Assembly: GCA_963789265.1 (NCBI GenBank)
Contig: CAWBKB010000001.1
Span: 1,856,001 to 1,920,000 of the forward strand
DNA: 64,000 nt
Source of the DNA: an uncultured delta proteobacterium
Lineage (GTDB): Bacteria > Desulfobacterota > Desulfomonilia > Desulfomonilales > Desulfomonilaceae
Direction: 5' to 3'
Both the position numbers and the translations under genes were made by a program. Positions 1 to 25,139 of this stretch are shown here, piece after piece. Each line of letters begins with the position of its first letter. The first letter of the stretch is position 1. Under the pieces are notes generated by a model. It ran no database searches, was not told where the DNA came from, and saw nothing but the letters and a program-made list of their open reading frames with translations.

Positions 1-2
1 GT

Positions 3-563
3 GGAGGAAGGGAGACACATATTCGTACGACCAGGGGGCTCTTTGGCGGTTATCCGGGGAGTACCAAACCGGGAATTGAGATCCACGACACAGATGTTTG
101 GAAAAAACTGGCCAATGGGGAAAAAGATATCCCGACGTCAACGGCAGAACTTATTACCGACAGGAAAATTGTCGGCCAGTACAAAGTCACCCATAACACT
201 CGCGAATACCACCTTGTAAAGAATGGCGATGTGATCGTCCACCTTAATTCCGGAGGGGCCGGCTATGGAGACGTGCTGTTCCGCGAGCCCGAGAAGGTGA
301 TGGAAGATCTACGAGATCAGATCATATCGCACTGGACCGCTCAGAATGTCTACAAAGTGGCATACGATCGAGAGACTCTCGTACCCGACGTCGAGGCAAC
401 CGAAAGAGAGCGCCGCAAGGAGCGCGAGACTAGGATAGAACGCGGAAAACCCTATCGAGAATTTGAGCGGGAATGGCTGGTGAAACGGGCCCCCGAACAG
501 GCGCTGAAACACTGGGGCACATGGCCGGACGGCAAGCAAACGAAACGTATAGTGAGATTTTGA
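3..563 (+). CDS. Hydantoinase B/oxoprolinase family protein (acetophenone/acetone carboxylase large-subunit-like), 5' truncated by window edge
   Basis: Frame 3 is open from base 3 (GGRETHIRTTRGLFGGYPGS...) into ORF 231..563; GLFGGY and GGAGYGD..R.PEKV..D motifs are typical of the hydantoinase B C-terminus. Confidence 0.85.
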   Translation, partial: GGRETHIRTTRGLFGGYPGSTKPGIEIHDTDVWKKLANGEKDIPTSTAELITDRKIVGQYKVTHNTREYHLVKNGDVIVHLNSGGAGYGDVLFREPEKVMEDLRDQIISHWTAQNVYKVAYDRETLVPDVEATERERRKERETRIERGKPYREFEREWLVKRAPEQALKHWGTWPDGKQTKRIVRF

Positions 564-573
564 GGGAAACACC

Positions 574-1383
574 ATGAAATTGAACGCGGCAATACGAATA
601 AACGTTTCACAAACGGACGCGACCTTTGAAACTGATGAAGGCCGAGCGATACAGGTGGAGTGCGTCAATGGCAAGGATCCTTCTTTCGACTGCTTTGTTC
701 AAGCTATAGAACAGGGGGCTAACATCCTGGAGCAGACGCCTGAAGAGATGGTCAGGCAACTTGCGGTCGTGCGTGTGTCCGTGCCCGCTGTAGCAGACAC
801 GATCGTCGCCAAGAGGCTCGGGACTCGAATTGGGCTGATAGTTACCCGGGCGGAAGAGACCACCGCTCAATGGAAAACAGCCACGGCAGATCCAGAGTTT
901 AATTTTGTCATTTCCCCGGAAATGATAGTCACTGTAAGGGAGGAAGTAAGCGATGCGGGGCAAAGGATCATCGCACCAGATCGCGATGAGATCAGGGACA
1001 AGGTGAGGTACCTGCTCGAACGCGGTGTTGGCGCCCTTGTCGTTAGTTTCCGAAATGGCCGAATCAATCCTGCGAATGAGAAAACAGTTAAAGAGTTCAT
1101 AGAATCGGATTATCCGAGACATTACCTCGGTGCGGTGCCGGTGTTCATAGCGAGTGATTTCTCGGCAGAGCAGGATGACTTCCGCAGGGCCAAGGGCTGC
1201 CTGCTCAATGTCTACTGCTGGGCGGGCGTGGACGATGCAATTGGCAGGATGCAAACCTACCTCAGAGAGCGAAAATTCGTGGGATCTTTCTTTATCTCGG
1301 ACGCCACAGGGGATTCCTTTTCAAGAGCGGGCCTGATCCCTCTCAGCACCTCCGGTGCGCTGGCCTCGCTGCATCTGTCATAG
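574..1383 (+). CDS. Stand-alone hydantoinase A N-terminal-domain protein (acetophenone carboxylase epsilon-subunit-like)
   Basis: 269 aa with GTRIGLIVT, LLERGVGALVVSF, NPANEKTVK and YPRHYLGAVPV segments; SD gaggga; directly follows the hydantoinase B gene. Confidence 0.7.
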   Translation: MKLNAAIRINVSQTDATFETDEGRAIQVECVNGKDPSFDCFVQAIEQGANILEQTPEEMVRQLAVVRVSVPAVADTIVAKRLGTRIGLIVTRAEETTAQWKTATADPEFNFVISPEMIVTVREEVSDAGQRIIAPDRDEIRDKVRYLLERGVGALVVSFRNGRINPANEKTVKEFIESDYPRHYLGAVPVFIASDFSAEQDDFRRAKGCLLNVYCWAGVDDAIGRMQTYLRERKFVGSFFISDATGDSFSRAGLIPLSTSGALASLHLS

Positions 1384-1417
1384 GCACGGCAGCCGTCGCG
1401 AAGGAGTTCAAGCCGGT

Positions 1418-2680
1418 ATGGCGAAGACAATCGTAATAATTGGTTCACTGGATACCAAGGGAGAGCAAATTCGGTTTCTGAAAGATCGAGTTCAAGCCAG
1501 AGGCCATCGGGCGCTCATCATGGACGTGAGCATGGGGTCAAGCTCTGGATTCGAAGGAGATATTACCCCTCGAGAGATCGCGAGTCTTGTGGGCAAAGAC
1601 ATTGCCGAGATCGTGGGATCCGATGACAGACTCTTCAAGACAGATGTCATGACCGCTGGCGCTCGGCAGAAAATGCTCGACCTCCTTGCAAAAGGCGAGG
1701 TAGATGGAGCTGTGGCGCTGGGAGGGGCCACGATCACGCTCCTTGGGTCCCGCGCGATGCAAGTGCTTCCCTTCGGAATCCCCAAGGTGATTGCGACGTC
1801 CGCGGCCATGCCCGTGTATGTCAGTCAGTGGTTCGAGGCTATGGATATCCTCGTCATGCAGATAATCATGGAATTCACCGGGATGAATGAATTGCTCACA
1901 CACGCACTCGGGCAAGTGGCGGGGGTTATTTCGGGCATCGTAGAAGAAAGCCGTCATCCTTCATCGCTTCGCCTGCCTTACCCCTCAATCGCCATAACCG
2001 AAATAGGGTTTTCTCCTCAATGCACACGGCAAGTCGAGAGTCTGCTCGAGGCCAACCAGTGGAACGTGTTCACCTTTCATGCCCAGGGTATCAGCGACAG
2101 GGCAATGGATCGTCTTATTTCCCAAGGTTTTTTTGACGGCGTCATTGACGTCGTGCCCGCCGGCGTCATCGAGGAAATGTTCGGCGGCAATCGTGCTGCG
2201 GGAAAAGAAAGGCTTGATGCAGTCTGCGAAAGAGGTATTCCGATGGTGCTCGCCCCCTGCTGCATTAATCTAACCGGGTGCGGAGCCACTCGAACCAATC
2301 GCGAGAAGTATGCTTCCAGACCCCATATAAAAATAGATGAATTAAGGGCCATGACACGTTTTGACGATGGAGAACTCACCGCGGCTGCGCGGGCTTACGC
2401 TGATAAGCTGAACAGAGCAAAGGGACCGGTGCGCTTCGTGGTGCCCTTGAAGGGTTGGTCTGCCATCGATAGGGAAGGTACCGTTCTATACAATCCGGAA
2501 AAGGACCGGATATTCATTGACAAGCTTAGGGAAAAGCTCAATCCGAGCATCCGGATCGTGGAAGTTCCAAACAACCTGGAAGACATGGACTTTGCCAGGG
2601 CGCTTGTTGATAACTTTACCGAGATTTTCAACGGACAAACCACCGATGACCGTGGCCGGAAGGCCGCAGGGGTAGAATAG
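1418..2680 (+). CDS. Tm-1-like ATP-binding domain protein (UPF0261)
   Basis: Starts MAKTIVIIGSLDTKGE; LPFGIPKVI, FHAQG, PLKGWSAID motifs; SD aaggag at 1401. Confidence 0.9.
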   Translation: MAKTIVIIGSLDTKGEQIRFLKDRVQARGHRALIMDVSMGSSSGFEGDITPREIASLVGKDIAEIVGSDDRLFKTDVMTAGARQKMLDLLAKGEVDGAVALGGATITLLGSRAMQVLPFGIPKVIATSAAMPVYVSQWFEAMDILVMQIIMEFTGMNELLTHALGQVAGVISGIVEESRHPSSLRLPYPSIAITEIGFSPQCTRQVESLLEANQWNVFTFHAQGISDRAMDRLISQGFFDGVIDVVPAGVIEEMFGGNRAAGKERLDAVCERGIPMVLAPCCINLTGCGATRTNREKYASRPHIKIDELRAMTRFDDGELTAAARAYADKLNRAKGPVRFVVPLKGWSAIDREGTVLYNPEKDRIFIDKLREKLNPSIRIVEVPNNLEDMDFARALVDNFTEIFNGQTTDDRGRKAAGVE

Positions 2681-2855
2681 GATCAAAGAAAAAGGTGACT
2701 GTTCACAGGGAAAGCGGCCTGTCCGCCTTTGAACTCGGCCGCCAGAGACGCCGGCCCCACCTGCAACCGTAGGAACGCCCTCCGTGCCGGTTCCCGGATG
2801 CCGGTAAACCGTCACGAAAGAAATTCAGCCGGGGTCAAGGCAAGGGAGATGATGG

Positions 2856-4295
2856 ATGGCAGGTATTCTTTCGTACGGAACATATATCCCTCTTTGGCGA
2901 CTGAGCCGGACAATGATCGAGCCTGGCGGAAAAGGTGAGAAAGTCGTTGCCGGGTATGACGAGGACAGCGTCACGATGGGCGTTGCCGCCGGTCTGGAGT
3001 GTCTCAAGGGATTGAACAGGCAGTCCGTCGACGGCTTGTATTTCGCTTCGACGACGGCTCCGTATAAAGAGAAACTCGCGGCAACCATTGTGGCGACAGC
3101 TCTGGACCTGCGCCGGGACTTGCTGGTGGCTGATTTTGCCAATTCCTTGAGAGCCGGGACGATAGCGCTCAGGGCGGCTCTTGATGCGGTCAAGGCCGGC
3201 ACGGCGGGTCAGGTGCTGGTAGTTGCGGCGGATTGTCGCCTGGGTGCTCCTGGGTCTGAATGGGAGCAGAAGTGTGCTGACGGTGCGGCGGCCGTGCTGA
3301 TAGGCGGATCGGGGCTGATTTCTGAGGCGGGGCACTGCTTCTCGGTCTGTGATGAAATACTCGACGTGTGGCGGTCGCAAGAAGATCGTTTCGTCCGGGC
3401 ATGGGAGAACCGGTTCGTGGCTGCCGAAGGGTACGTCAGAGTGACAAGAGATGCAGTGACGGGTTTGATGACAAAGTACGGTCTCAGCCCCGACGAATTC
3501 ACCAAGATTGTGATTGCAGTGCCTGATAAGCGGAGGCAGGCTCAGCTTGCCGGAATACTCGGATTTGATGCCGCGAGGCATTTGCAAGATTCTTTGCTGG
3601 ATTCGGTCGGGGACTGCGGCACTGCATATCCGCTCATGCTCCTCGCTTCCGCACTGGAACGGGCGGCCGCGGGCGACACGATCCTCCTGTCCGCATACGG
3701 AAACGGGAGCGACGCCTATACGTTCAAAGTAACAGACCGGGCAGCCGCACCAGTGGACAGGCGCACCATAGACGACTACCTGCTGTCAAAGAAGACAATT
3801 CCCAGCTATGCCGCATACCTGCACTGGAAAGGGCTATTGCCGGAGCAGAATCCGCCATATCCTCTCGGCGAGATATCTGCTCCTGCGCTATGGAGGGAGC
3901 GTGAACAGAATATGCGGCTCTATGCAGGCAGATGCACGGTATGCGGCGCCATCCAGCATCCTCCGCAGAGGGTCTGCGTCAAATGTCGGGCCAAAGACCA
4001 GTTCGAATACGTGAGACTTTCCGACAAGAGGGGCGAATTGGTCACCTACTCGGTTGATTACGTGGAAGGCAATTCAGGCGTGCCCGCAGTCCTCTGCGTC
4101 GTCAACTTCGAGGGCGGAGGCCGGATAGACTGCTCCATGACAGATTGGACTACTCTTGAGGAGATTAAGATCGGCATGACCTTGGAGATGACCTTCAGGA
4201 AACTCTATGTGAGGGACGGAATCCATCAGTATCTCTGGAAATGCGCGCCACCGAGGACATGCGGATCGACAGGGAACAGCCAATGGAAAGCATAA
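2856..4295 (+). CDS. HMG-CoA-synthase-like (thiolase-fold) protein fused to DUF35 zinc-ribbon/OB-fold
   Basis: N-terminal GILSYGTYIP and DEDSVTMG; C-terminal CTVCG..QHPPQRVCVKC and VVNFEGGGR, MTFRK. Confidence 0.85.
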   Translation: MAGILSYGTYIPLWRLSRTMIEPGGKGEKVVAGYDEDSVTMGVAAGLECLKGLNRQSVDGLYFASTTAPYKEKLAATIVATALDLRRDLLVADFANSLRAGTIALRAALDAVKAGTAGQVLVVAADCRLGAPGSEWEQKCADGAAAVLIGGSGLISEAGHCFSVCDEILDVWRSQEDRFVRAWENRFVAAEGYVRVTRDAVTGLMTKYGLSPDEFTKIVIAVPDKRRQAQLAGILGFDAARHLQDSLLDSVGDCGTAYPLMLLASALERAAAGDTILLSAYGNGSDAYTFKVTDRAAAPVDRRTIDDYLLSKKTIPSYAAYLHWKGLLPEQNPPYPLGEISAPALWREREQNMRLYAGRCTVCGAIQHPPQRVCVKCRAKDQFEYVRLSDKRGELVTYSVDYVEGNSGVPAVLCVVNFEGGGRIDCSMTDWTTLEEIKIGMTLEMTFRKLYVRDGIHQYLWKCAPPRTCGSTGNSQWKA

Positions 4296-5464
4296 AAGAC
4301 AAAGTTGCCGTCATCGGTATGGGCTGCACGCAGTTCGGTGAGTTGTGGGACAAAGGTCCGCACGACCTTATCGTCGATGCTTGTTCCGAGGCGCTCGAGG
4401 ATGCGGGGATCGAATCCACCGACATACAGCATGCGTGGTTTGCCAGTCTCGTGTCCGGCGCGTCAGGGGCTCGCCTGTCAAGCGCATTCAAGCTCCCGTA
4501 TATACCTATTACCCGGGTCGAGAACTTCTGTTCAGGCGGCAGCCATGCTTTCGGAAACGCGTGCTACGCTGTTGCCGCAGGTGTATGCGATATCGCTCTT
4601 GCCTGTGGGGTGGAGAAATTAAAGGACCGCCCCGGCGGTTTCGCTTATCCGAACCCCGAGCCGTTCGACTCAAGCAAAATCATATCCGAGTTGCTCCCGG
4701 CAAACATGTTCGCTCATATTGCCGTCAAGTACTTCGAAGAGAAGAGTTGGACCTGTGAAGAAGGCAGGCGGATTCTGGCCAAGATCGCGGTAAAGAACCA
4801 TCATAACGGGACGCTCAATCCTAAAGCCCATCTTCATCGCGAGATCACGGAAGACGACGTGCTGAGAGCTCCTATGGTGGTCTACCCCTTTGGACTTTAT
4901 GACTGCTGTGGTGTCAGTGACGGAGCGGCCGCGGCAATCATCTGTAGGGCCGACATGGCCAAAAGCTTTCGCGACGACTACGTACTGGTCAAGGCTGTAT
5001 CCTTTGCTTCCGGATCCGGTGAATCGCGCTTCTGCGACGACTATGACTATCTCGACATCCCTGAGACCACAATAGCTGCCAAAAGGGCGTATGAGCAAGC
5101 CGGAATAAAGAACCCGCGCAAGGAGATTTCCCTTGCCGAGATTCATGATTGCTTCACCATCCACGAGTTAGTCCTGTACGAGCAGCTTGGTTTCAGCCCG
5201 CGATTGAAGGCTTCGCAAGACGTTGAAGCAGAGGCCTTTACGTTGAATGGAGAACTGCCGGTCAATCCCGACGGCGGTCTGAAATGCTTCGGCCACCCGC
5301 TTTCCGCGACCGGCTTGCGTATGATTTACGAGGTGTACAAGCAGCTTCAAGGAAAGGCGGGCCAGCGACAGATCAAGAATGCATCAATAGGACTTACTCA
5401 GAATGTCGGAGGAATGGTGGGGTTCTTCAACGCGGCTGTACTGCTCTTCGGCACGAGGTCATAA
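4283..5464 (+). CDS. Thiolase / acetyl-CoA acetyltransferase (SCP2-thiolase type)
   Basis: VENFCSGG, AEIHDCFT and GHPLSATG motifs; start overlaps the upstream gene end. Confidence 0.9.
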   Translation: MESIKDKVAVIGMGCTQFGELWDKGPHDLIVDACSEALEDAGIESTDIQHAWFASLVSGASGARLSSAFKLPYIPITRVENFCSGGSHAFGNACYAVAAGVCDIALACGVEKLKDRPGGFAYPNPEPFDSSKIISELLPANMFAHIAVKYFEEKSWTCEEGRRILAKIAVKNHHNGTLNPKAHLHREITEDDVLRAPMVVYPFGLYDCCGVSDGAAAAIICRADMAKSFRDDYVLVKAVSFASGSGESRFCDDYDYLDIPETTIAAKRAYEQAGIKNPRKEISLAEIHDCFTIHELVLYEQLGFSPRLKASQDVEAEAFTLNGELPVNPDGGLKCFGHPLSATGLRMIYEVYKQLQGKAGQRQIKNASIGLTQNVGGMVGFFNAAVLLFGTRS

Positions 5465-5482
5465 ACTGTCAGGGGGTTTGTA

Positions 5483-7075
5483 ATGGAAGTTTCCGTACCA
5501 AGGGTCCTGGGAGAACTGATCGCGGACAGGGCAAAGACGAACAAGGATAGAATCTTCCTACGTTTCAAGGACCGGAATATTACTTATGGACAGATCGATC
5601 GTTTCTCGAACCGCTGTGCTAACGCATTTCAAGAGTTGGGAATAGCCAAAGGGGACAAGGTGAGCATTATGCTCCCGAACTGCCCCGAGTTTCTATATGT
5701 CTGGTTCGGCCTGGCAAAGTGCGGAGCAGTGGAAGTTCCGGCCAATACATCCTATAAGGGGGAGTTCCTGAGGCATATTGTCGATCAGTCGGATTCCAGG
5801 TTCCTTGTCATAGCTAATGAATTTCTGGACCGCCTGACGCTGATCCAGGATCGGTTGAAGAAGCTCGAAAAGGTGATAGTCCTGGGAGGACCGCCAAAAC
5901 GGGAAGGTAACGGACTAAAGTTCCCTATCATGGGCTTTGATGACTTCTTCGACACCAGCGACTCTCCGGTCGATATAGTGGTCCATCCCTCCGACTCGCT
6001 CAGCATAATCTACACTTCGGGGACAACCGGCGTCTCAAAGGGTGCCTTGGGATCCCATAATTTCTGGATAATCTGCGCTGAAAAAATGCTTGCGTACAGG
6101 GAAGGCGGAAAGGAAGACATTTTCCTGACCTTCTTGCCGCTATATCATTTCAATGCACAAGTCCTCACCACTGTTACAGTTCTTGTGGCGGAAGCGGAGA
6201 TGGTCCTCCTGGACCGCTTCAGTGCGTCTCGTTTCTGGGATGAGGTACGTCATTACGGAGCAACTCAGTTCAACTATCTGGGAGCGGTGATGCCGATTCT
6301 GGCCAAGCAGCCCGAGCGGAATGACGACGCGGACAACCCGGCCCGCATTGCCCTGGGCGCAGGGTGTCCTCCGTCAGTTATGGAAGAAGTGGAAAAAAGA
6401 TTCGGCATAAAGTGCTTGGAAGGATTCGGCATGACGGAGATAGGTATTCCGATCCATGTGGACGCCGGCGACAGGAGGCACGGTTCCTGTGGAAAACCGA
6501 TGGATATCTACGAGGTAAAATTATTTGACGATCATGACAAAGAGGTACCGGCAGGAGAAATTGGCGAGATCGTATTTCGGCCTCGGGTACCGTTCGTGAT
6601 GATGTCCGAATATTACAACATGCCTGAAAAGACCGTGGAAGCCTGCCGGAATCTGTGGTTTCACACCGGCGATTTGGCCAAGAAGGATGAAGACGGTTAC
6701 TTCTATTTTGTTGACAGAAAGAAAGATGCACTCAGAAGACGGGGGGAAAACATTTCTTCTTTCGAGGTGGAGAGGGCGATCAATACGCATCCCGGAATTC
6801 TCGAATCAGCAGCCGTTGCTGTCCAATCCGAGTTAGCCGAAGATGAGGTGAAAATATGCGTTGTGCTGAAGCCGGGCGAGACCCTCGCCCCCGAAGAGTT
6901 GGTGGCGTATGCCAATGACAGGATGCCTTACTTCGCTGTGCCGCGATATGTGGAATTTATGGAGAGTCTGCCGAAGACCCCGACGGAGCGGGTGCAAAAA
7001 TATTTACTCAAACAGGCAGGCGTTACGGCGAACACATGGGATAGGGAAAAGGCCGGGGTGAAAGTTTCAAGATGA
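5483..7075 (+). CDS. ATP-dependent acyl-CoA ligase (CaiC-like)
   Basis: IYTSGTTGVSKG, EGFGMTE, WFHTGD, RRRGENISSFEVE, LPKTPTERVQK. Confidence 0.92.
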   Translation: MEVSVPRVLGELIADRAKTNKDRIFLRFKDRNITYGQIDRFSNRCANAFQELGIAKGDKVSIMLPNCPEFLYVWFGLAKCGAVEVPANTSYKGEFLRHIVDQSDSRFLVIANEFLDRLTLIQDRLKKLEKVIVLGGPPKREGNGLKFPIMGFDDFFDTSDSPVDIVVHPSDSLSIIYTSGTTGVSKGALGSHNFWIICAEKMLAYREGGKEDIFLTFLPLYHFNAQVLTTVTVLVAEAEMVLLDRFSASRFWDEVRHYGATQFNYLGAVMPILAKQPERNDDADNPARIALGAGCPPSVMEEVEKRFGIKCLEGFGMTEIGIPIHVDAGDRRHGSCGKPMDIYEVKLFDDHDKEVPAGEIGEIVFRPRVPFVMMSEYYNMPEKTVEACRNLWFHTGDLAKKDEDGYFYFVDRKKDALRRRGENISSFEVERAINTHPGILESAAVAVQSELAEDEVKICVVLKPGETLAPEELVAYANDRMPYFAVPRYVEFMESLPKTPTERVQKYLLKQAGVTANTWDREKAGVKVSR

Positions 7076-7155
7076 CGGTGTGCGAATACCGGCCGGGGTT
7101 TTCGATTCCAAGAGGTGCCGGGAAGAGGGCAACAGGCAATTTGAACTAAACTTGG

Positions 7156-7173
7156 CTTATGACTTCATAAGCA
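7156..7173. promoter_or_regulatory. Palindromic candidate operator CTTATGACTTCATAAGCA
   Basis: Near-perfect inverted repeat (GCTTATGA-CT-TCATAAGC); 16/18 match at 20608-20625. Confidence 0.5.
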
Positions 7174-7281
7174 AATGGCTCTTGCCTAAGTCTTTGCATG
7201 TGCTAAAAAAGTCAAATCAAGAGATGAACGCCTGCCGGCGGACAGCTTTCCGATTCCCCTGCCGTGCGCTGTTCCGTACCG

Positions 7282-7380
7282 GAGATAGCAGTATCAGGGT
7301 CATAGACAAGTAACTCTTTTTCCATCATTTCTCCACCTGTTGTTGTTCTGGGTCCGAGATAGCAGTGTCAATGTCATAGA
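7282..7380 (+). repeat. Two 25-bp direct repeats (22/25 identical), 74 bp apart
   Basis: GAGATAGCAGTATCAGGGTCATAGA at 7282-7306 and GAGATAGCAGTGTCAATGTCATAGA at 7356-7380. Confidence 0.75.
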
Positions 7381-7784
7381 TATGGTCTGTGCCACGGCTT
7401 GTGTCTGATATGTCATGAGCCCTCGGCGGCGATTTTCCGCTCCCAATAGTGTCGGACCGTTGGAGACAATGCCTGGGATCTCGGCGATGAGAATAGATCC
7501 GACGAATCAGCTCTTCGACCCGATGGTAAACCGGTATGACGAGATAAGGGCTGAAAGGAGGTGGATAACTGCGGGTACTGAATGCGATTTCCCGGATGAT
7601 CCAGCCTTTTCGGCGGCGGATGACCGCCAAAGGGCACTCTTTAGGGACTGAGTGAGAGGGGGAGTCTCCGCGTGAAATGAAAATCGGGAACATAGGGACG
7701 CCCGGCTTTGGTGGCGTGGAGAGACTCTGCGAGTCGCGGAAGAGGCTCCTTGAACCACTCCCAAACGGACAAGGAGGAGCACTT

Positions 7785-9095: not shown

Positions 9096-9330
9096 TTTCA
9101 TCCGGACGGACCTTCACTTCTAAGGCCGTTCAGGGCGAGACAGCAAGTGGCTGATGTGTCCCTAACGATGTCCCTTGCTCGTTGCTTGGTTCACCACGAG
9201 GAGGGGATGCAGTTTCGATGGAGGCCGGATGCCCAGCCGCAATTGTGTCTTGTACAAACGTGAGCGAGATAAGATGGTACGGGACCTCCAACAACCAAAG
9301 GGACATGCATAATGAAATAGAGGGAGACGA

Positions 9331-10614: not shown

Positions 10615-10672
10615 TAGACGTGATTCGCTTTCACGGCGGTCGGTCGGAGTAATTGTGTTCGGAGGTAGCGAT

Positions 10673-11497
10673 ATGAGACTGAAAGAAAAGGTGGCACTCG
10701 TCACCGGCGGAGGCACCGGCATAGGAGCAGCAATCTCAAGGCGGTTTGTTGCCGAGGGCGCGAAGGTTTGTATCGCCGGCCGCCGCCAAGAAATGCTCGA
10801 CAAAGTGGCTGAATCACTCCCCGCAGGAGCTGTGACGACCTGTTCGGGAGATGCATCAAAGGATGAAGATGTGGCCCGAATGGTGTCCACGACGGTTTCA
10901 TTTGGTGGCAAACTCGATGTGCTGGTCAATAATGCAGCGATAAGTGCACAAGGACCGGTTGGCGACATGGACCGTGCCGTTTGGCGACAAGTGATTGATG
11001 TGAACCTTACCGGGCCCTTTATGCTCATGCAGGAGGCAATACCGCACATGATAAAGTCCGGCGGAGGCTCCATCATAAATATCGCTTCCGTCGGCGGACT
11101 TCGTTGCCTGCCCGGTATGCCGGCATACTGCGCATCAAAAGCGGGCCTTATCATGCTAACTCAGCAGGCGGCACTGGATTACGGCCCGCACAAAATCAGG
11201 TGCAATGCGGTGTGTCCCGGCGGCGTCAAAACGGAGATGACCGAGAAAGAGTTCGGACAGTTTGGGAAAATGCTCGGCATGGATACGGACGGTTTCTTTG
11301 CCATGATATCAGCGGAGATTCCTTTGCATCGCTTCGGAATCCCCACTGAACTCGGCGGTATTTGCACGTTCCTCGCGAGTGACGACTCATCATTCATGAC
11401 AGGAGCCGCTCTGGTTATCGACGCCGGAACTTCCATCGTCGATGTTGTAGGGGCTTCTATCATGGGAGCACTCAGGCGAGGCGGTGTCTTGAAATAA
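10673..11497 (+). CDS. SDR family oxidoreductase
   Basis: TGGGTGIG, NNAA, YCASK; SD ggaggt. Confidence 0.92.
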   Translation: MRLKEKVALVTGGGTGIGAAISRRFVAEGAKVCIAGRRQEMLDKVAESLPAGAVTTCSGDASKDEDVARMVSTTVSFGGKLDVLVNNAAISAQGPVGDMDRAVWRQVIDVNLTGPFMLMQEAIPHMIKSGGGSIINIASVGGLRCLPGMPAYCASKAGLIMLTQQAALDYGPHKIRCNAVCPGGVKTEMTEKEFGQFGKMLGMDTDGFFAMISAEIPLHRFGIPTELGGICTFLASDDSSFMTGAALVIDAGTSIVDVVGASIMGALRRGGVLK

Positions 11498-13307: not shown

Positions 13308-13358
13308 CTGCTGGGAAGATGTGAGAATACCGCAAAAAGGGGTAGTGAACATAGGAAC

Positions 13359-15629: not shown

Positions 15630-15683
15630 AAGAAGCGTATTTTACAATTCGAACGGTCAATCACGCGATCATAGGAGTCGGAA

Positions 15684-18398: not shown

Positions 18399-18703
18399 GC
18401 TTGAACTGAGGCGACTTTTCTGCGGAAGACCCATTTTGATACGAATTTGTTTTCAAAATCTCCCCGGTCCCCTTTACAAAAGGGGGGAACTCCTTCAGAC
18501 GCGAGGTTAAGTCAACGTCTATGCGGCAAAACAGGGCTTATCATTTTGCGGTTAGGTCTGGAACTGCTCTGGGGCTGTGCTCACGACGTGAGCGTTCAGC
18601 GGGAAAAAGGTTTACCCGGTTCCAGGTTTAGCAGGCAGAGAGAAAGTGTCTCGAAACTATTTTGATGCTCGGAATTGTGGCACGATGGCAGCCCGGCACT
18701 AAA

Positions 18704-20379
18704 GAGAGTGTCTCAAAACGGTTGTAGTGGCACGATGACGACTCTCGGGGTGGTAGGGTGCGGTTAATCTCGCACCTTGGCCTCCCTTGTCTCCGACGAG
18801 CCGGGGCCGGCTATGAGTATGCCTCAGGCAGCCATGAGTCACTCTCCGTCCTGATGTCTTAGGCCGCGGTTAGCACCAGACGCCCCGTCAGCCAATGGCT
18901 GTAGAGCTTCTTGAGATTCAAGGTGGCGCACATCAAAGACCATTGAGCCCTCGCATTGGATAATCCGGACACGGTCCACCGTCTAAAGTCCAAGTGGCTC
19001 TTTATCCATGCAAAGACCGGCTCAATGATCACCTTGCGGGCTCGGAGTAGCGTCTTGCTTTCCGGGACCTCCCGTTTCTTGCGGTGGCGCTCAACTGCGT
19101 CACGATAGATGTTAATGTCTATGAGACGGCCATTCTTGCTCTTGCTGCACTTCCACCGTTCAGGACACGTCAAGTAGTCCCGGCATCGATACCGCCGGAT
19201 CTCGTTTCCGTTTTTTCCTGTGACTTTCTTCTGAAGAAAGTTCAGCGATGCGCCTTGCGGACAAATACAGACGTCTCGCTCTTGGTCGTAGACGAACTGG
19301 GAAGCGTGATAAGGGTCCCATTGAGCGCCTTTTTCCGCAGCGGACTCTCCCGACGACTTGGCGACCAAGACCTCGTACTCCTTCTCTTCGGCCAACGCGA
19401 TTTGAGCCGATGCGAAGTATCCTGCGTCCGCCACGGTTTCCTCTGCGGTTGCGCCCAAATTTTCCTGAACTCGATCCAGCATGGGAACAAGCTGCCCATT
19501 GTCATTGCCTTCGTCGACCACTTCCTCAGCCACAATCATGCCGCTTTGTTGGTCTGCCACCGCTTGAGCATTGTAAGAGGGCTCAGTAGACCGCCGGTTC
19601 TTCATGTACCGGGCATCCGGCTCGCAGGGATGGACGACCTTCTTGTCAGTCTTATCCAATTCCTGCAAGGCCTTCTGTATCCGCTCCTTGCGTTTCAACT
19701 CGTCCTGCAGGGCTTCGGGAAGACGCCATTCGCCACCCTCCTCTTGCTCGCACCTCTCTGTCTCCGTCATGACGTCGGCAACGCACTTGTCCAAATTCTC
19801 AAGCATCCGCTCCAACTGATCTTGGTTCTTGAACTTCTCCCGAGATGATCCGACAGGGATCTTGGTTCCATCCAATGCATGAACCGCCATACCTATCAAC
19901 TCGGCTTTGACTGCCACTTGAACCGATTGTTTGAATATTCCCTTGAAAACCTTCTTGTTGTCCCTCCAGAATCGCCACAGGGTATTATGATCCGCTGCAT
20001 TCATACCCGTCAGCCAAATCAATCCCATGTTCTCCATGCATGCCTTCTCAAGCTTGCGCGATGACCTGATTCTGCTGAAATAGCCGTAGAGCCATGCCTT
20101 CAACAAAAGATCGGTACTATAGGGAGGACGGCCCGTTTCGCCATTCGGAACTCGAAAACCCAGCACCTCCAAATCCAAGGAATCCACAAAGTCTCCTATG
20201 AAGCGCGCTGGATGATCAGGCCCTATCCAGTCATCTATAGCGGGCGGAAGCAGAAACACCTGCTTGTAGTCGGCTCTGATTTGCGGCATAATCCTTTCCC
20301 TCTCCGATTCTCTTTTCACATCTCATTAGTAGAATCGGTTGAGAATCGCGAGCCCAAAATCGACTTTTGAGACAGTTTC
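18704..20379 (-). mobile_element. IS1182 family insertion sequence
   Basis: IRs GAGAGTGTCTCAAAA and TTTTGAGACAGTTTC (13/15); TAAA target duplication at 18700-18703 and 20380-20383. Confidence 0.88.
18859..20289 (-). CDS. IS1182 family transposase
   Basis: GRPPY...LLKAWLYGY...SSRKLE, ALDGTK, YNAQ, VADAGY, CICPQG, IEPVF. Confidence 0.93.
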   Translation of the reverse strand: MPQIRADYKQVFLLPPAIDDWIGPDHPARFIGDFVDSLDLEVLGFRVPNGETGRPPYSTDLLLKAWLYGYFSRIRSSRKLEKACMENMGLIWLTGMNAADHNTLWRFWRDNKKVFKGIFKQSVQVAVKAELIGMAVHALDGTKIPVGSSREKFKNQDQLERMLENLDKCVADVMTETERCEQEEGGEWRLPEALQDELKRKERIQKALQELDKTDKKVVHPCEPDARYMKNRRSTEPSYNAQAVADQQSGMIVAEEVVDEGNDNGQLVPMLDRVQENLGATAEETVADAGYFASAQIALAEEKEYEVLVAKSSGESAAEKGAQWDPYHASQFVYDQERDVCICPQGASLNFLQKKVTGKNGNEIRRYRCRDYLTCPERWKCSKSKNGRLIDINIYRDAVERHRKKREVPESKTLLRARKVIIEPVFAWIKSHLDFRRWTVSGLSNARAQWSLMCATLNLKKLYSHWLTGRLVLTAA

Positions 20380-20607
20380 TAAAGTACCGGTCTACTCTCA
20401 ATCGCCCCAATGGGGCTCAAATACTGGCGTCCCGTAGGGACCTGAGACAGTAGCCCGGTAATTCATTACCGGGGAAAAGGGTCATTCGTGGTACGATTTC
20501 GTCCAGTTCACGGGTTTTGAGACCGTTTCGAGACACCGGCCCTACTACGATCTCGGTAGGACCGGACTCTCGGGATGCCGGTCACAAAGTCCCCATTGAA
20601 CGCTTAC

Positions 20608-20744: not shown

Positions 20745-21338
20745 GTGAAAAACGACCCTCCTGTTCAGGTGGTCTTTGTGTGCGTCAGCAACCGCGGTCG
20801 GAGCGTTTTCGCTGAGTTCGCTTTTAGAAAGATGATCGGCGAACGAGATGGAAGGCTTCTTGAGCTGGTCTATGTGTCGTCCGCCGGCTTTATCCCTCGG
20901 GCCCTAAGAGGGCATGTGGCAAAACTGGGTATAAGCTTTCCCGAGCCCTTTTACAGCCGTCCCATGCCTGAAACGACACGTACTTTTTTGTCCGAGAGAG
21001 GCATAGTAGTCTCACCGGATTGGAGGTCGAAAGCGCTCACTTCAGTAATGGTGCAAGAGGCCAATCTCATTGTCACTGCCCTACCCCAGCAAAAAGAAGA
21101 CCTCCTTAATCTTTATCCGAATGCGAAGGGCGAGATTCTCACAATTAGAGAAATATCTCAATGGACCGGGTATCTTAGATTCGAGGATTTATCGGGACTC
21201 CCGACAGATGGTACGTACTGGAACTATGTCGAGGAAGATGCTGATTATGTTTCGGAAATACTCGTCGAGATGGAACAGAGCTTGACGCGGGCATTCCCGC
21301 ATATCCTCGGACGGCTCGGGCTTGGTGGCGATTCGTGA
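20745..21338 (+). CDS. Low-molecular-weight phosphatase / ArsC-like protein
   Basis: VFVCVSNRGRS P-loop (CX5R), VSSAG; GTG start with SD ggag. Confidence 0.8.
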   Translation: MKNDPPVQVVFVCVSNRGRSVFAEFAFRKMIGERDGRLLELVYVSSAGFIPRALRGHVAKLGISFPEPFYSRPMPETTRTFLSERGIVVSPDWRSKALTSVMVQEANLIVTALPQQKEDLLNLYPNAKGEILTIREISQWTGYLRFEDLSGLPTDGTYWNYVEEDADYVSEILVEMEQSLTRAFPHILGRLGLGGDS

Positions 21339-21440: not shown

Positions 21441-23072
21441 ATGGCGGACAAAAGTTATGATGCAGTGGTCGTAGGCGGAGGTCATCATGGCTTGATAACG
21501 GCTTGTTACCTGCAAATGGCGGGGATAAAAACTGCAATATTCGAATTGAAGCCGCATTTGGGAGGATCGGTGACCAGCGCGGAAGGGCCGGCACCGGGAT
21601 TCACTTTTAACGTCAGTTCCAGTTGGACACGCTTTTACGGCCACCCGGCCTACAGTGATTTCAATCTTCGAGAGAAAGGCCTGGAATACATTTTCCCCGA
21701 GGGGAATGAGGCCATGATTTTCGACAACGATACCTGCCTGATCGGTTACTCCGCCTTGAAAGTCGTTGACCCTCTGACCGGAAAGACCGAGATATCTCAC
21801 GAGAATTTGCAGAAGACTCTCAATGAAATCAGCCGGTTTTCCCAGAAAGATGCTGAGACCGCGGTAGAGCTTTTTCGAAGGTACATGAAGAAATGGAAAT
21901 CCGCGATGGGAGATTATCGGCTCCGGCCCCCGGTTCCATGGGGAAAAAAGAATGAATTGGAAAAGCTGTGTGACGACCCCGAGGACGGCATTGACCCCAT
22001 ATATCAGTTCATGACTACTCAGCAACTGGCCTATGATGTTTTCGAAAGCGAAGAACTGAGGACACTGTTTATCAGAGCAGCCATGACCTCTTTTGGCGGC
22101 GCCCCTCATGATGTTATCGGCCTACATGGCTTCATCCACGCCATCGGGTTGGTCCTTTCGTGGGAGCCTGCGGCCATTGCCAAAGGAGGCAGCCAGAGCA
22201 TATCGAATGCCCTGCAAGAGGCATTCACGCAAATGGGCGGCGAGTTCTTTTGCCGCAGCGACGTGGTCAAACTCGTAATCGAGAATAACAAGGCAAAAGG
22301 GATTCGACTGAAAGATGGAACGGAGATAAAAGCCGAGAAGCTCGTGGTCAGCGACCTGAGCGCTCTTCAATCCGTTCACCTTATTGGTGAAGAGCATCTT
22401 GATTCCAAGATTGTCAACCGTGTGAAAAACATCAGATATGATCGGCACACTATTGTTTGGGCTATGGTCGCCATGCACGAGTTGCCGCAGTACAAGGCGG
22501 CTTCATTTAACTCGGACTGCGGATCGCAACCCAGGATGTACATAGGACCGCGAAACGCAGATTACATGGCGAACCAATACCTTTCCGAGATATTCGTTAA
22601 AGGTATCGCAGACCGGCTCTTCATGTTTGTTGGTCCTGACAGCATCTGGGATAGCTCCAGGGCCCCTGAAGGCAAGCATATCATTGGGATTGAGGAATTC
22701 TCCGCGCCTGCAAGATTCTTTTCCCCAACCAAGTGGCAAGATCTGAGAAATCAGTTTGAAGCCGCCATCATCAGAGAGTGGCAGAAATACGCTCCGAACA
22801 TGACCAGGGAGAATGTTATCGCCAGTCAGATTGTTACCCCCTACGATATTCAATTGACCCACCCGAACATGCATGAAGGGTCCATAGCCTGCGGAGACAT
22901 GATCGTCTCTCAGATGGATCGATTTCGTCCAACTCCGGAACTATCAGGTTACAGGACGCCCATAAAGAACTTCTATCTGTGTTCCTCCGCCTGCCACAAT
23001 GGAATCGGTACGGGGCGAGGTTCTTCTTACAACTGTTATCAGGTGATCCGAGAGGACTTTTCTTTGAAGTGA
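21441..23072 (+). CDS. FAD-dependent oxidoreductase, phytoene dehydrogenase-like (COG1233)
   Basis: YDAVVVGGGHHGL..A.YL, AKGGSQSI, YRTPIKNFYLC...H.G.G. Confidence 0.9.
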   Translation: MADKSYDAVVVGGGHHGLITACYLQMAGIKTAIFELKPHLGGSVTSAEGPAPGFTFNVSSSWTRFYGHPAYSDFNLREKGLEYIFPEGNEAMIFDNDTCLIGYSALKVVDPLTGKTEISHENLQKTLNEISRFSQKDAETAVELFRRYMKKWKSAMGDYRLRPPVPWGKKNELEKLCDDPEDGIDPIYQFMTTQQLAYDVFESEELRTLFIRAAMTSFGGAPHDVIGLHGFIHAIGLVLSWEPAAIAKGGSQSISNALQEAFTQMGGEFFCRSDVVKLVIENNKAKGIRLKDGTEIKAEKLVVSDLSALQSVHLIGEEHLDSKIVNRVKNIRYDRHTIVWAMVAMHELPQYKAASFNSDCGSQPRMYIGPRNADYMANQYLSEIFVKGIADRLFMFVGPDSIWDSSRAPEGKHIIGIEEFSAPARFFSPTKWQDLRNQFEAAIIREWQKYAPNMTRENVIASQIVTPYDIQLTHPNMHEGSIACGDMIVSQMDRFRPTPELSGYRTPIKNFYLCSSACHNGIGTGRGSSYNCYQVIREDFSLK

Positions 23073-23305
23073 GACTCGATAGCGATATGTCCACCGCCGC
23101 GAGGTCGTATAAATCAGGTACAGATTGTTATGGTTTACACCGAGAAAATCAACCGCAATCCATTCTTGCCGATTAAATAGGCGTGCCTCGCTCGCTCCCT
23201 CTGGAAGTTGCATAAGCTGTACGGGACGCTGCCGGGTTCGCGAACAAGCTGGTATGACAATACATTTCATGGCCTTGCTCCCGGCTAATGCGAGGAAACA
23301 AGTGG

Positions 23306-24049
23306 ATGAGACTCAAAGATAAGGTGGCCATTGTCACGGGGGCTGCCAAGGGACTTGGAAGAACCTTCGCTATTGCTCTCGCGAGAGAGGGCGCAAAGAT
23401 CATGGCTGTTGATATCGCAGACCCTGCGGAAGTGACAACAGATATCGAATCAGGCGGAGGTGTGGCCAAAGGTTTGCGGGCCGACGTTTCCATCGAAAAG
23501 GAGACCCTCAAGATCGCACGGGAAACAGTAAATGCCTTTGGAAGGATTGACATACTAATCAACAATGCCGCTATCGTTCAAGGGTTGGTTCGAAAACCTT
23601 TCTATGAAATCGAACCGAACGAGTGGGACCGGCTGATGCTGGTGAATCTCAAAGGCCCCTGGCTATGTACAAGGGCCGTATTCCCCTACATGAAGCAGCA
23701 GGGAAAAGGAAAGATAATCAACCTTTCCTCGGAGACTTTCTTCACCGGGTCTCACGGTTTGGTCCACTATGTGGCCTCAAAGGGCGGAATAGTCGGGTTA
23801 ACGAGAGCCCTTGCCATTGAATTGGGTCCCCACAATATCAACATCAACGCTGTTGCACCCGGATTTACAGATACTGAATCTAGCCGATCCATCGCAGATA
23901 TCTCCAAATACGATGTCACTCGGACACCTTTGGGTCGATTGCAGCAGCCCGACGATCTCGTTGGGGCAGTTATCTTTCTTGCCTCTGATGAAAGCGATTT
24001 CATCACCGGCCAAACTCTGTTGGTGGACGGAGGGAGGGTCATGCATTAG
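23306..24049 (+). CDS. SDR family oxidoreductase (secondary-alcohol dehydrogenase-like)
   Basis: TGAAKGLG, NNAA, HYVASKG, FITGQTLLVDGG. Confidence 0.92.
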   Translation: MRLKDKVAIVTGAAKGLGRTFAIALAREGAKIMAVDIADPAEVTTDIESGGGVAKGLRADVSIEKETLKIARETVNAFGRIDILINNAAIVQGLVRKPFYEIEPNEWDRLMLVNLKGPWLCTRAVFPYMKQQGKGKIINLSSETFFTGSHGLVHYVASKGGIVGLTRALAIELGPHNININAVAPGFTDTESSRSIADISKYDVTRTPLGRLQQPDDLVGAVIFLASDESDFITGQTLLVDGGRVMH

Positions 24050-24107
24050 TCCTCGCTGTGTTTGCAGGGATTGCGAAAAGTAATGTCCGTTTGAGGCGGA
24101 GGGGCAG

Positions 24108-25139
24108 ATGAGTTCAGAAAAACTATTCTTTTGGTTTGAGGAGCTGCGAGACACACACAACGACCTCGTGGGGAAGAAGTGCGCAAATCTCGGTCAAATG
24201 ATTCACTTGGGATTGGAAGTCCCGCCGGGCTTCGCGATATCCATCGACGCTTATCTGAAATTCATTCGTGAAACGGGCGCTGCGGCGGAAATGTCTCGAT
24301 ATGTGGAGGCCCTGGGCGAATTGAAAGGGCAAGGTATCGGCGTTTTCGAGGAAATCAGTCAAACGATCCAAGGCATCATTGAGAAAACAGAGATGCCCGA
24401 GGGGGTGCAAGGGCCGATAATAGATTATTACGACAGGCTTTGCGACAAAGTGGGGATTCCCGATATGCCCGTGTCGGTCAGATCGGCAGGCACGGAAAGC
24501 AGACCGGGCCTCTTCGAAACCTATCTCAATGTCAAGGGCATTGACGACGTGTTGGATAAGGTGAAGAAAGTTTGGGCCAGTGCGTACACGACCAGAGCGG
24601 TGGCATTCAGGATAAACAAAGGCTTGCCGGTTGTGGGAGACGAACTGGGGGTTGCGGTTCCAAAGATGGTCAATTCGCGCTCGTCCGGAATTTGTTTTAC
24701 GGCCAACCCTGTCACAGGCGATCACTCGAAGATCATTCTCGAAGCCAACTGGGGACTGGGAGAAGGCGTGGTCAGTGGAGCCGAAAGCGTTGATGGGTTC
24801 GTCGTTGACAAGGAATCGCTGCAAATTACGAACGTTCAGATAGGCAGAAAAGCTACGTGCGTAGTGAATCGGGAGAAAGGCGCTGCATGGGCTGATGTTC
24901 CTAAAAAAATGCAGAGTATCTCCTGCATAAGCGATGAAGAAGTCATCGAAATAGCCAGGGTGGCGAGGTCCGTCGAGACAAAATTAGGGCGTCCGCAGGA
25001 CATGGAATGGGCCATCGACAACGATCTCCCCTTCCCCAAGAGCATCTTTTGGCTTCAGACGCGGCCTGCAAAAGTTAAGGCCGCAGCTCCCGTATCAACC
25101 ACAGACCAGATCATCAACATGATGATCAGAAGACTGTGA
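24108..25139 (+). CDS. PEP/pyruvate-binding (ATP-grasp) domain protein (phenylphosphate synthase beta/CreI-like)
   Basis: VGKKCANLG, VPPGFAI, SVRSAG, WGLGEGVVSG, PQDMEWAI, WLQTRP; ends before the His domain. Confidence 0.88.
   Translation: MSSEKLFFWFEELRDTHNDLVGKKCANLGQMIHLGLEVPPGFAISIDAYLKFIRETGAAAEMSRYVEALGELKGQGIGVFEEISQTIQGIIEKTEMPEGVQGPIIDYYDRLCDKVGIPDMPVSVRSAGTESRPGLFETYLNVKGIDDVLDKVKKVWASAYTTRAVAFRINKGLPVVGDELGVAVPKMVNSRSSGICFTANPVTGDHSKIILEANWGLGEGVVSGAESVDGFVVDKESLQITNVQIGRKATCVVNREKGAAWADVPKKMQSISCISDEEVIEIARVARSVETKLGRPQDMEWAIDNDLPFPKSIFWLQTRPAKVKAAAPVSTTDQIINMMIRRL

Follow-up and report, generated by a model that had tools for sequence, protein, structure and literature searches.

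A phosphorylation-dependent route for the breakdown of phenolic ketones, with 4-hydroxyacetophenone and acetovanillone as substrates, has been characterised since 2022. In the Hpe pathway, a dikinase resembling phenylphosphate synthase is combined with a carboxylase for the acetyl group, a phosphatase, and a CoA ligase plus a cleaving enzyme; the phosphorylated ketone is the only form that HpeCBA carboxylates, HpeD then strips the phosphate, and ligase and hydrolase release the hydroxybenzoate unit (PMC9618137). The same combination is reported for the Acv pathway (bioRxiv 10.1101/2022.04.28.489975). The phenol is phosphorylated either by a two-component dikinase, HpeHI or AcvAB, or by the UPF0261 kinase MarK. 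HpeHI is a dikinase of the RPH type, HpeH corresponding to the substrate-binding and swivel domains of RPH and HpeI to its ATP-grasp domain, and it also phosphorylates 4-hydroxybenzaldehyde, vanillin, cresol and phenol (PMC12167813). Dexter et al. describe a clustering of the xcc genes of anaerobically growing Aromatoleum with hpeHI homologues (PMC9618137). The systems of Rhodococcus rhodochrous GD02 (HpeHI-CBA-D-E-F), Sphingobium sp. SYK-6 (AcvABCDEF with VceAB) and Aromatoleum aromaticum EbN1 (xcc) follow the same logic of a PpsAB/RPH-type dikinase, acetyl carboxylation, a CoA ligase and C-C cleavage to a hydroxybenzoyl unit. Here we analyze a 64,000-nucleotide stretch of DNA from an uncultured delta proteobacterium of the Desulfomonilaceae (contig CAWBKB010000001.1, positions 1,856,001 to 1,920,000; hereafter the window), in which positions 3-25139 hold a catabolic island with both subunits of such a dikinase.

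We consider the chances about even that this span is a mosaic island of a strict anaerobe, cut by an insertion sequence (IS), with a core that is a variant of the Hpe/Acv/Xcc route for phenolic ketones of the 4-hydroxyacetophenone type. What is new is a module of strict anaerobes that has a dikinase clade of its own and additional proteins, together with, in this window, an Apc-type carboxylase where the relatives have a biotin enzyme. A preliminary description of the window had proposed a substrate that bears both a carbonyl or amide and a phosphorylatable OH or NH, for example a hydroxyaryl ketone or an N-heterocycle. The hydroxyaryl ketone is the best reading, with dikinase, UPF0261 kinase, ligase and thiolase recurring together with an AcvE-type biotin carboxylase. 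The accompanying statement that no characterised pathway is known with this combination is not supported in view of Hpe, Acv, MarK and the xcc-hpeHI clustering in Aromatoleum.

Evidence for the core comes from the neighbourhoods of the dikinase H subunit (the substrate-binding and swivel-His half) in other genomes. An alignment search of genome contigs with the H subunit retrieved 51 loci (cited by L numbers), all in metagenome-assembled genomes (MAGs) and mostly from Thermodesulfobacteriota (Syntrophorhabdales, Desulfatiglandales, Desulfobacteraceae, Desulfomonilaceae), with a few from Chloroflexota and Bacillota. Companion genes were counted by tblastn with the window proteins and additional proteins of L004 and L037, requiring a match over at least half of the query; note that many of the loci end at contig borders. 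The ATP-grasp subunit was found in 45/51 loci, followed by an isochorismatase-like cysteine hydrolase (Cys-hydrolase; 32, the commonest companion after ATP-grasp), UPF0261 (26), a PycB/AcvE-type carboxyltransferase (CT; 24), a biotin carboxylase (BC; 19) and a DUF2284 protein (18); CT or BC was present in 27. The CoA ligase, at 60% identity or more, occurred in 13 loci, a short-chain dehydrogenase/reductase (SDR) in 12, the fusion of HMGS-like and DUF35 domains in 11, the thiolase, at 50% identity or more, in 10, and the major facilitator superfamily (MFS) transporter in 10 (61-81% identical). Ligase, HMGS-DUF35 and thiolase were found together in 8 loci. Acyl-CoA dehydrogenases (ACADs) were rarer (6 loci), as was the protein resembling low-molecular-weight protein tyrosine phosphatase (LMW-PTP; 2), and Apc-like, Mop-like and CrtI-like genes each occurred in a single locus. 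If the count is restricted to the 24 loci in which 8 kb or more is available to either side, 23 have ATP-grasp, 18 the Cys-hydrolase, 16 UPF0261 and 16 CT. The usual gene order, seen in L004, L008, L017 and L032, is CT fused to biotin carboxyl carrier protein (CT-BCCP), BC, UPF0261, ATP-grasp, H subunit, ligase, HMGS-DUF35, thiolase, in some cases LMW-PTP-like and DUF2284, MFS and hydrolase. A separate clustering of 798 open reading frames (ORFs) gave the same picture and added Liv-type ABC transporters in 12-13 loci, PaaK-like ligases in 7 and aldehyde dehydrogenases in 6.

Genes matching uptake, phosphorylation, CoA ligation and thiolysis thus occur elsewhere together with a biotin carboxylase. 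Over their full length, the CTs of L023 and L027 are 49-50% and that of L004 is 40% identical to the CT of a cluster on a Rhizobium plasmid that is ordered acvABCDEF, and the L004 BC is 45% identical to the BC of the same cluster. For comparison, Higuchi et al. give 55% identity to AcvE for XccA, 42% for the CT of GD02 and only 26% for methanogen PycB (bioRxiv 10.1101/2022.04.28.489975). Together with the published Hpe, Acv and Xcc systems, this likeness identifies the conserved module as a relative of these routes in strict anaerobes, and the frequent conservation of an AcvE-type CT with the dikinase points to carboxylation next to a carbonyl. As for the 17 genes of the island, they are not a conserved unit: the module of dikinase, UPF0261, ligase and thiolase recurs, whereas Apc-like, full-length Mop and CrtI-like genes (1/51 each) and ACADs (6/51) do not generally accompany it. 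The features of the island are as follows.

3-563, + strand: C-terminal 186 amino acids (aa) of an ApcD-like protein (hydantoinase-B type, beta) (NCBIfam, PDB)
574-1383, + strand: protein of 269 aa with Hydant_A_N only (Pfam)
1355-2680, + strand: putative kinase of the UPF0261 (Tm-1/MarK) family (Pfam)
2856-4295, + strand: HMGS-like and DUF35 fusion (Pfam, PDB)
4241-5464, + strand: SCP-x-type thiolase (Pfam, NCBIfam)
5483-7075, + strand: AMP-forming acyl-CoA ligase (Pfam AMP-binding)
7677-9095, + strand: MFS transporter (Pfam MFS_1, 4e-62)
9331-10614, + strand: first ACAD (Pfam)
10544-11497, + strand: first SDR (Pfam)
11619-13307, + strand: dikinase H subunit, the substrate-binding and swivel-His half (Pfam PEP-utilizers)
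13359-13970, + strand: isochorismatase-like Cys-hydrolase (Pfam, 3.4e-34)
14220-15629, + strand: second ACAD (Pfam)
15684-18398, + strand: Mop-type molybdenum aldehyde oxidoreductase with fused 2Fe-2S domains (NCBIfam NF045668)
18690-20393, - strand: IS1182-family insertion sequence, transposase at 18859-20319 (NCBIfam, 1.7e-108)
20745-21338, + strand: LMW-PTP/ArsC-like protein (Pfam LMWPc, 6.7e-6, a weak match)
21441-23072, + strand: CrtI/COG1233-like flavoprotein (Pfam, NCBIfam)
23288-24049, + strand: second SDR (Pfam, NCBIfam)
24108-25139, + strand: ATP-grasp (I-type) dikinase subunit (Pfam PPDK_N, 2.5e-79)

All 17 genes named in the preliminary description are present on the + strand (ORF list, Pfam, NCBIfam). 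Their common orientation holds; the IS1182 transposase on the opposite strand had been overlooked. The reported lack of a UbiD carboxylase was confirmed, with no Pfam match among the 43 window ORFs scanned.

A biotin-type carboxylase is common to Hpe, Acv and 27 of the 51 related loci. In contrast, the window carries the end of an Apc-type operon. Further differences from Hpe and Acv are an H subunit of a 560-aa clade, not of ~600-640 aa; a ligase of a different AMP-binding subfamily; a thiolase, paired with a PhlA/DUF35-like protein, in place of HpeF or VceAB; a UPF0261 gene clustered with the dikinase; and an LMW-PTP-like protein and a Cys-hydrolase where the known systems have a HAD phosphatase (HpeD/AcvF).

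The H subunit has 562 aa, with a PRK08296 family match over residues 12-560 (NCBIfam) and a C-terminal PEP-utilizers swivel domain at residues 484-555. Residues 228-560 align with positions 544-866 of RPH (PDB 5fbs, 5e-26). The pair S518-H519 is invariant across 17 aligned family members; a Ser precedes the catalytic His in PpsA and CreH as well (PMC12167813). The family is large and tight: of 982 relatives scored, the best 120 have lengths of 559-583 aa and identities of 68-92%. The PDB matches of the H subunit were RPH and PEP synthases; HpeH, which was studied through an AlphaFold model (PMC12167813), was not among them. Annotated plasmid clusters were therefore used for comparison with the characterised types, with a pps-ppc cluster of Azoarcus sp. 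KH32C, cre-type clusters of Rhodococcus and the acvABCDEF-ordered cluster of Rhizobium leguminosarum as references. With only 27-28% identity to the proteins of these clusters, the H subunit falls into a separate 560-aa clade. The window dikinase belongs to the same two-component family as PpsABC-Ppc and the 4-cresol kinase CreHI; P450 or ferredoxin genes of the Cre type were not found among the 43 window ORFs scanned with Pfam. In L024, two opposed 560-aa H subunit genes (5500-7176 and 9547-11226) lie beside a Mo enzyme.

Identity of the window's ATP-grasp protein to the usual partners of the H subunit is 41-50%, but reaches 74% with a second copy found in L020, a Desulfomonilaceae locus. A tree of 43 sequences groups it with this copy (L020_1051; support 100/100), and the sister clade comprises 38 locus ATP-grasp proteins (90/94), 28 of them encoded adjacent to an H gene. 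All of these, the window protein included, stand apart from PpsB, CreI-like and AcvB-like proteins in this tree, the references being on long branches. Counting the window's own, 30 of 40 ATP-grasp genes of at least 300 aa lie no more than 400 nt from an H gene. By its place in the tree, the product of 24108-25139 is thus a paralogue and not the type normally found beside the 560-aa H subunit. Both dikinase genes of the window are full length with intact motifs.

The HMGS-DUF35 protein carries the Pfam zinc ribbon zf-ChsH2 and the OB fold OB_ChsH2_C, and matches PDB entries 9skh (4.1e-37), PhlA 5m3k (1e-31), archaeal HMGCS 6esq_I (2.4e-30) and, with its C-terminus, DUF35 6esq_E (4e-14). The Leu of its NSLRAGT motif aligns with the Cys of FACKAGT in archaeal HMGCS, which we take to be the residue that catalyses the condensation; in PhlA the position is occupied by Gly. 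HMG-CoA synthase activity was considered but is not expected of this protein on account of the Leu, and the protein probably serves as a non-catalytic scaffold for the thiolase, with whose gene its own overlaps by 55 nt. HMGS-like, DUF35 and SCP-x-type thiolase components are likewise encoded together for PhlACB of Pseudomonas and for the archaeal complex of thiolase, HMG-CoA synthase and DUF35; unlike in these systems, a single polypeptide of the window carries both the HMGS-like and the DUF35 part. The thiolase has Pfam Thiolase_N and Thiolase_C_1 domains and scores 505.6 bits against NCBIfam PRK06157 (cut-off 403); we propose that it is a beta-ketoacyl-CoA thiolase. The ligase, at 571.7 bits below the cut-off of 722 for PRK06155, is proposed to be an aryl-beta-ketopropionate-CoA ligase. 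PhlACB is an acyltransferase that transfers acetyl groups independently of CoA. A CoA-independent deacetylation of this kind was considered and judged less likely, since a conserved CoA ligase adjoins the scaffold and thiolase; this arrangement favours thiolysis of a beta-ketoacyl-CoA.

The genes at the start of the window point to a different carboxylase from that of the related loci. The ORF at 3-563 runs off the window edge, so that only its last 186 codons are present. It matches positions 504-684 of 685 of NCBIfam ApcD (8.1e-43; 146.7 bits against a full-length cut-off of 1500) and PDB 5l9w_A (5.8e-38), compared with 36.4 bits (1.9e-9) for caprolactamase CapB and only 4e-6 for the acetone carboxylase alpha subunit; Pfam gave no match for this ORF. 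Sixty-three percent of its residues are identical to the C-terminus of a 687-aa ApcD-like protein in L037. As judged from these alignments, it is probably the 3' end of the gene for an ApcD-like beta subunit of an ATP-dependent ketone carboxylase; genes for alpha, alpha' and gamma subunits would lie upstream of base 1. In the protein encoded at 574-1383, Hydant_A_N (Pfam, 1.8e-11) is the sole domain; it matches the N-terminus of NCBIfam ApcC (3e-25) and PDB 5l9w_B (7.7e-22) and is 36% identical to a 307-aa homologue in L037. This gene occupies the slot of the ~30-kDa epsilon gene in the order apcABCD(E) (PMC5214803), but its product resembles the N-terminal domain of alpha/alpha'; epsilon subunits of Apc are reported to be highly divergent (PMC5214803, PMC13677872). 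The ApcD-like and short Hydant_A_N genes are separated by a 10-nt spacer, and the latter overlaps the annotated start of the UPF0261 gene.

In Aromatoleum, an Apc-type enzyme followed by a CoA ligase constitutes the acetophenone route (PMC5214803). The window shares with apcABCDE of A. aromaticum the ApcD-like C-terminus, the ~30-kDa gene in the epsilon slot and a downstream CoA ligase, and the chemistry of Apc and benzoylacetate-CoA ligase, from ketone to beta-keto acid to CoA ester, is that proposed here. The Aromatoleum enzyme acts on unphosphorylated acetophenone, and the window operon differs in continuing into the UPF0261 gene. In L037, the H subunit gene is directly followed by Apc-type genes for a short alpha'-like protein, gamma (Acetone_carb_G, 5e-30), alpha (ApcC, 714 bits) and beta (ApcD, 583 bits; both cut-offs 1500). 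No CT or BC was found by tblastn in the 13 kb of this locus.

The UPF0261 protein has both the N and the C domain of the family (Pfam, 6e-38 and 2.9e-61), and matches plant Tm-1 (7.8e-41) and MarK (9mpy, 2.1e-35) in the PDB. MarK was the first UPF0261 protein with a demonstrated activity, the ATP-dependent phosphorylation of acetovanillone, and its residues G195, H219 and H304 are more than 90% conserved (PMC12624787). The DTK motif for ATP is kept in the window protein, D33-T34-K35 aligning with D14-T15-K16 of MarK, and G218 and H242 align with G195 and H219, two residues by which MarK contacts its substrate. The protein is thus a putative ATP-dependent aromatic kinase. It resembles MarK (Saro_1862) of Novosphingobium aromaticivorans in its two domains, the DTK motif and the adjoining ketone-carboxylase genes, and differs in being encoded along with a dikinase, not instead of one. 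Some Bacillota and delta-proteobacterial loci (L030, L034, L035) have two UPF0261 genes (~60% and ~33% identical to that of the window) and/or two CT genes per dikinase.

LMW-PTP-like, HD and ARMT1 proteins are present where a HAD phosphatase would be expected, and no HAD protein was found among the annotated gene clusters common to at least 6 related loci. The LMW-PTP-like protein has a CX5R(S) loop (CVSNRGRS), and in both L004 and L032 the thiolase gene is immediately followed by the gene of a homologue 50-52% identical to it, making it a candidate aryl-phosphate phosphatase. The isochorismatase-like protein matches RutB (8bkd, 1.4e-28), with which it shares the motif ATNVCVEST, and biuret hydrolase (1e-20). 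It might stand in for the HAD phosphatase, or have an amide or ester as its substrate. The DUF2284 protein (L004 16731-17396, and 17 further loci) has NCBIfam matches only to the DUF2284 part of the selenoproteins MbdU and ArsM-DUF2284.

From these components we infer the following route, including its substrate, the order of the steps, the use of an Apc-type enzyme on this substrate and the identity of the phosphatase. The compound would be taken up by the MFS transporter, and its phenolic OH would be phosphorylated by the dikinase (H subunit 11619-13307, for which the paralogue 24108-25139 is the only ATP-grasp subunit in the window), by the UPF0261 kinase (1355-2680), or by both. The acetyl methyl group would then be carboxylated, in the relatives by the AcvE-type biotin enzyme and here likely by an Apc-type enzyme, the last two genes of which lie at 3-1383. 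Removal of the aryl phosphate may fall to the LMW-PTP-like protein (20745-21338) or the Cys-hydrolase (13359-13970). The resulting beta-keto acid would be converted to its CoA ester by the ligase (5483-7075), and the ester cleaved by the thiolase (4241-5464) on the PhlA/DUF35-like scaffold (2856-4295) into hydroxybenzoyl-CoA and acetyl-CoA.

The SDRs, ACADs, Mop and CrtI-like proteins are probably peripheral (e.g. for alcohol-to-ketone or aldehyde-to-acid steps) or unrelated passengers. Mop scores 1678 bits against NCBIfam NF045668 (cut-off 1100). The pair of first ACAD and SDR is 72-76% identical in L018 and L021, where it is divergent from the dikinase genes, and single members occur in L010, L012 and L022. 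A homologue of the second ACAD is 75% identical in L045, with others at 43% in L002 and L035, and a CrtI-like gene, 43% identical, lies near the window-type ATP-grasp paralogue in L020. A downstream 4-hydroxybenzoyl-CoA reductase was considered and rejected: its alpha subunit is the best NCBIfam match of the Mo subunit in L024, but at 714 bits against a cut-off of 994, and the Mo enzyme of the window is Mop. The phenol (Pps-Ppc) route was likewise ruled out, as neither a CBS-domain PpsC nor a UbiD-type gene was detected among the 43 window ORFs scanned.

Following the ATP-grasp gene, 25475-29307 (+ strand) encodes a stand-alone receiver-domain protein, a 200-aa protein without a family, an ARMT1-type 'damage-control' phosphatase, an HD-domain protein and a zinc-dependent alcohol dehydrogenase (Zn-ADH). 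Homologues of the receiver-domain protein and of Zn-ADH, both 76% identical, lie near the dikinase genes in L020. The remainder of the 64-kb window holds beta-oxidation genes and other functions. A promoter and terminator scan of 1-19000 gave 12 promoter-like sites (11.7 expected) and 20 terminator-like sites (18.0 expected), and did not resolve operon borders.

The IS1182 element has imperfect inverted repeats of 29 nt at 18690-18718 and 20365-20393 (79% complementary). It sits in the spacer between the Mop and LMW-PTP-like genes and divides the 3-25139 span, with the H subunit and ATP-grasp genes, 10.8 kb apart, on either side. An IS630-family transposase gene (29320-30405, - strand) follows just past the span, after the Zn-ADH gene, so that the two elements (18690-20393 and 29320-30405) flank the second half of the island. 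Two genes further along the window are split. A beta-oxidation thiolase gene (32551-33754, - strand) is contained in two overlapping ORFs, 32801-33754 covering positions 15-221 of Thiolase_N and 32551-33051 the end of Thiolase_N together with Thiolase_C; it is probably a frameshift or pseudogene. A UvrD/AddA-type helicase-nuclease is encoded in two successive ORFs (49221-50057 and 50104-52476, + strand) that share out the UvrD N-terminal domain, and this gene is probably broken as well. The two split genes suggest a decaying or rearranging genome. In L033, the UPF0261, MFS, H subunit, ligase, HMGS-DUF35, thiolase and hydrolase genes (5814-16944) each match in several frame-shifted pieces, as a result of either assembly errors or decay of the copy.

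Several observations weigh against a phenolic-ketone route in the window. The H subunit is equally distant from PpsA (27.2% identity over the full length), CreH-like (27.4%) and AcvA-like (28.0%) proteins, so that its sequence gives no substrate. No ATP-grasp gene adjoins it; the only PPDK_N gene of the window lies 10.8 kb off, across the IS, and belongs to the sister clade. With the L004 proteins as tblastn queries for CT-BCCP and BC, no CT or BC homologue was found in the 64-kb window, nor was a DUF2284 homologue, and the nearest loci (L001, L002 and L020; 82-83% identical) have no carboxylase, ligase or thiolase in the surrounding DNA examined. Apc-like genes accompany the dikinase only in L037, and the substrate of the Apc-like enzyme is not readable from homology because a Rhodococcus Apc homologue carboxylates acetone and not acetophenone (PMC13677872); given that relative, a different ketone may be the substrate of the window enzyme. 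For the UPF0261 protein, the match to plant Tm-1 is stronger than that to MarK, and in a single pairwise phmmer alignment I327 and I371 stand at the positions of MarK H304 and H348, although the alignment near I327 may be off because a His stands three residues before it. With just 22.5% identity to the AcsA-like enzyme of the acv-type cluster, the ligase is not an orthologue of HpeE/AcsA. Pfam detected no HAD domain among the 24 island-region proteins, and the known pathway has no step to which the Cys-hydrolase or DUF2284 would belong.

Some of these points fit the main alternative, which we regard as rather unlikely, namely a chance juxtaposition by IS-driven rearrangement. The Apc carboxylase, ligase and thiolase would then act on a non-phenolic ketone (acetophenone, acetone or a longer aliphatic one), next to a phenol-dikinase remnant that lacks its partner subunit and biotin carboxylase and perhaps no longer forms a working pathway. 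IS1182 inside the span and IS630 just after it, the split thiolase and AddA-type genes, the absence of cognate ATP-grasp, CT and BC genes from the window and the single co-occurrence of Apc-like genes with the dikinase all agree with this, as do the descriptions of an Apc-type enzyme with a CoA ligase alone in the Aromatoleum acetophenone route (PMC5214803) and of an Apc homologue acting on acetone (PMC13677872). In contrast, the trio of ligase, HMGS-DUF35 and thiolase goes with the dikinase and biotin-carboxylase module in 8 other loci, not with Apc genes. Moreover, the UPF0261 gene overlaps the last Apc-like gene, L037 independently has Apc-type genes directly after its H subunit gene, and neither dikinase gene of the window shows truncation or loss of motifs. 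A second alternative keeps the dikinase and UPF0261 active on another phenolic, with the phosphate as a handle or protecting group during side-chain oxidation, either much as in the Cre pathway for 4-cresol or with phenolic aldehydes or alcohols as substrates; Mop, Zn-ADH and SDRs would oxidise, and HD, ARMT1 or LMW-PTP-like proteins would dephosphorylate. The H subunit is as near to CreH-like as to AcvA-like proteins, in Rhodococcus plasmid clusters of the Cre type the kinase has genes for HD-domain proteins, SDRs and aldehyde dehydrogenases as neighbours, and in the window the ATP-grasp gene is followed by HD, ARMT1-phosphatase and Zn-ADH genes, with Mop present as well. Aldehyde dehydrogenase genes in 6 loci and the broad substrate range described for HpeHI, from 4-hydroxybenzaldehyde and vanillin to cresol and phenol (PMC12167813), point the same way. 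We nevertheless judge this improbable: after the Cys-hydrolase and UPF0261, the top conserved dikinase partner is the AcvE-type CT (24/51; CT or BC 27), and Mop recurs in just one locus and HD homologues only in L027 and L041.

The remaining alternative is the other example of the preliminary description, an N-heterocycle or lactam, with a hydantoinase-like enzyme opening the ring at the expense of ATP and the isochorismatase-like protein acting as amidase. The intact motif of the Cys-hydrolase and its best matches to amidohydrolases (RutB 1.4e-28, biuret hydrolase 1e-20) would suit this, and the hydantoinase family includes ATP-dependent lactamases, with a weak CapB match (1.9e-9) at 3-563. 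However, 3-563 is far nearer to ApcD than to caprolactamase (146.7 versus 36.4 bits) or acetone carboxylase, and its homologues in L037 are accompanied by an Acetone_carb_G gamma subunit (5e-30), which according to published subunit tables denotes carboxylases, not hydantoinases (PMC5214803). With the AcvE-type biotin carboxylase as the usual companion of the module, this example finds little support, and we think it highly improbable. A wider form of the phenolic-ketone route, which we put forward tentatively and as doubtful, is that strict anaerobes (Syntrophorhabdales, Desulfatiglandales, Desulfobacteraceae, some Chloroflexota and Bacillota MAGs) hold an uncharacterised phospho-activated ketone-carboxylation pathway, built on the 560-aa H clade, whose members would always come with a clustered UPF0261 kinase, the Cys-hydrolase and DUF2284, all lacking from the known pathway, and in which an Apc-type enzyme replaces the biotin enzyme here and in L037 and the Cys-hydrolase is the substitute for the HAD phosphatase.

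Our literature search found nothing on an anaerobe form of the dikinase module, including in Syntrophorhabdus, and no Apc-type enzyme with HpeHI, AcvAB or MarK in one pathway. In Dataset S3 of the MarK paper, colocalised clusters are listed only for Alpha- and Betaproteobacteria, Actinomycetota and one Thermomicrobiota (PMC12624787), and the names Syntrophorhabdus, Desulfomonile, Desulfatiglans, Dethiobacter and Desulfobacter* were not found in three of its supplementary files, which possibly do not include Dataset S2. Several of the loci (L010-L012, L024 and L026) are from peat-bog MAGs. Spruce defence compounds include the hydroxyacetophenones piceol and pungenol (PMC6935585), and compounds of this type could be a natural source of substrate.

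If the island were merely a mosaic, it would be an ordinary catabolic region. In the case of an Apc-type enzyme acting in place of the biotin enzyme, as in the wider form of the phenolic-ketone route, it would be the first such enzyme on a phosphorylated hydroxyaryl ketone; two unrelated carboxylase families would be interchangeable in one pathway, which would be relevant to oxygen-free biocatalytic carboxylation. Hydroxyacetophenones and acetovanillone are plant- and lignin-derived compounds. For their oxygen-free consumption, as in peat, sediments and digesters, a single denitrifier is to our knowledge the only described case. If widespread in strict anaerobes, the module would add a route from phenolic ketones to hydroxybenzoyl-CoA, and would give a context to the 560-aa dikinase clade, the UPF0261 paralogues, a Cys-hydrolase and DUF2284.

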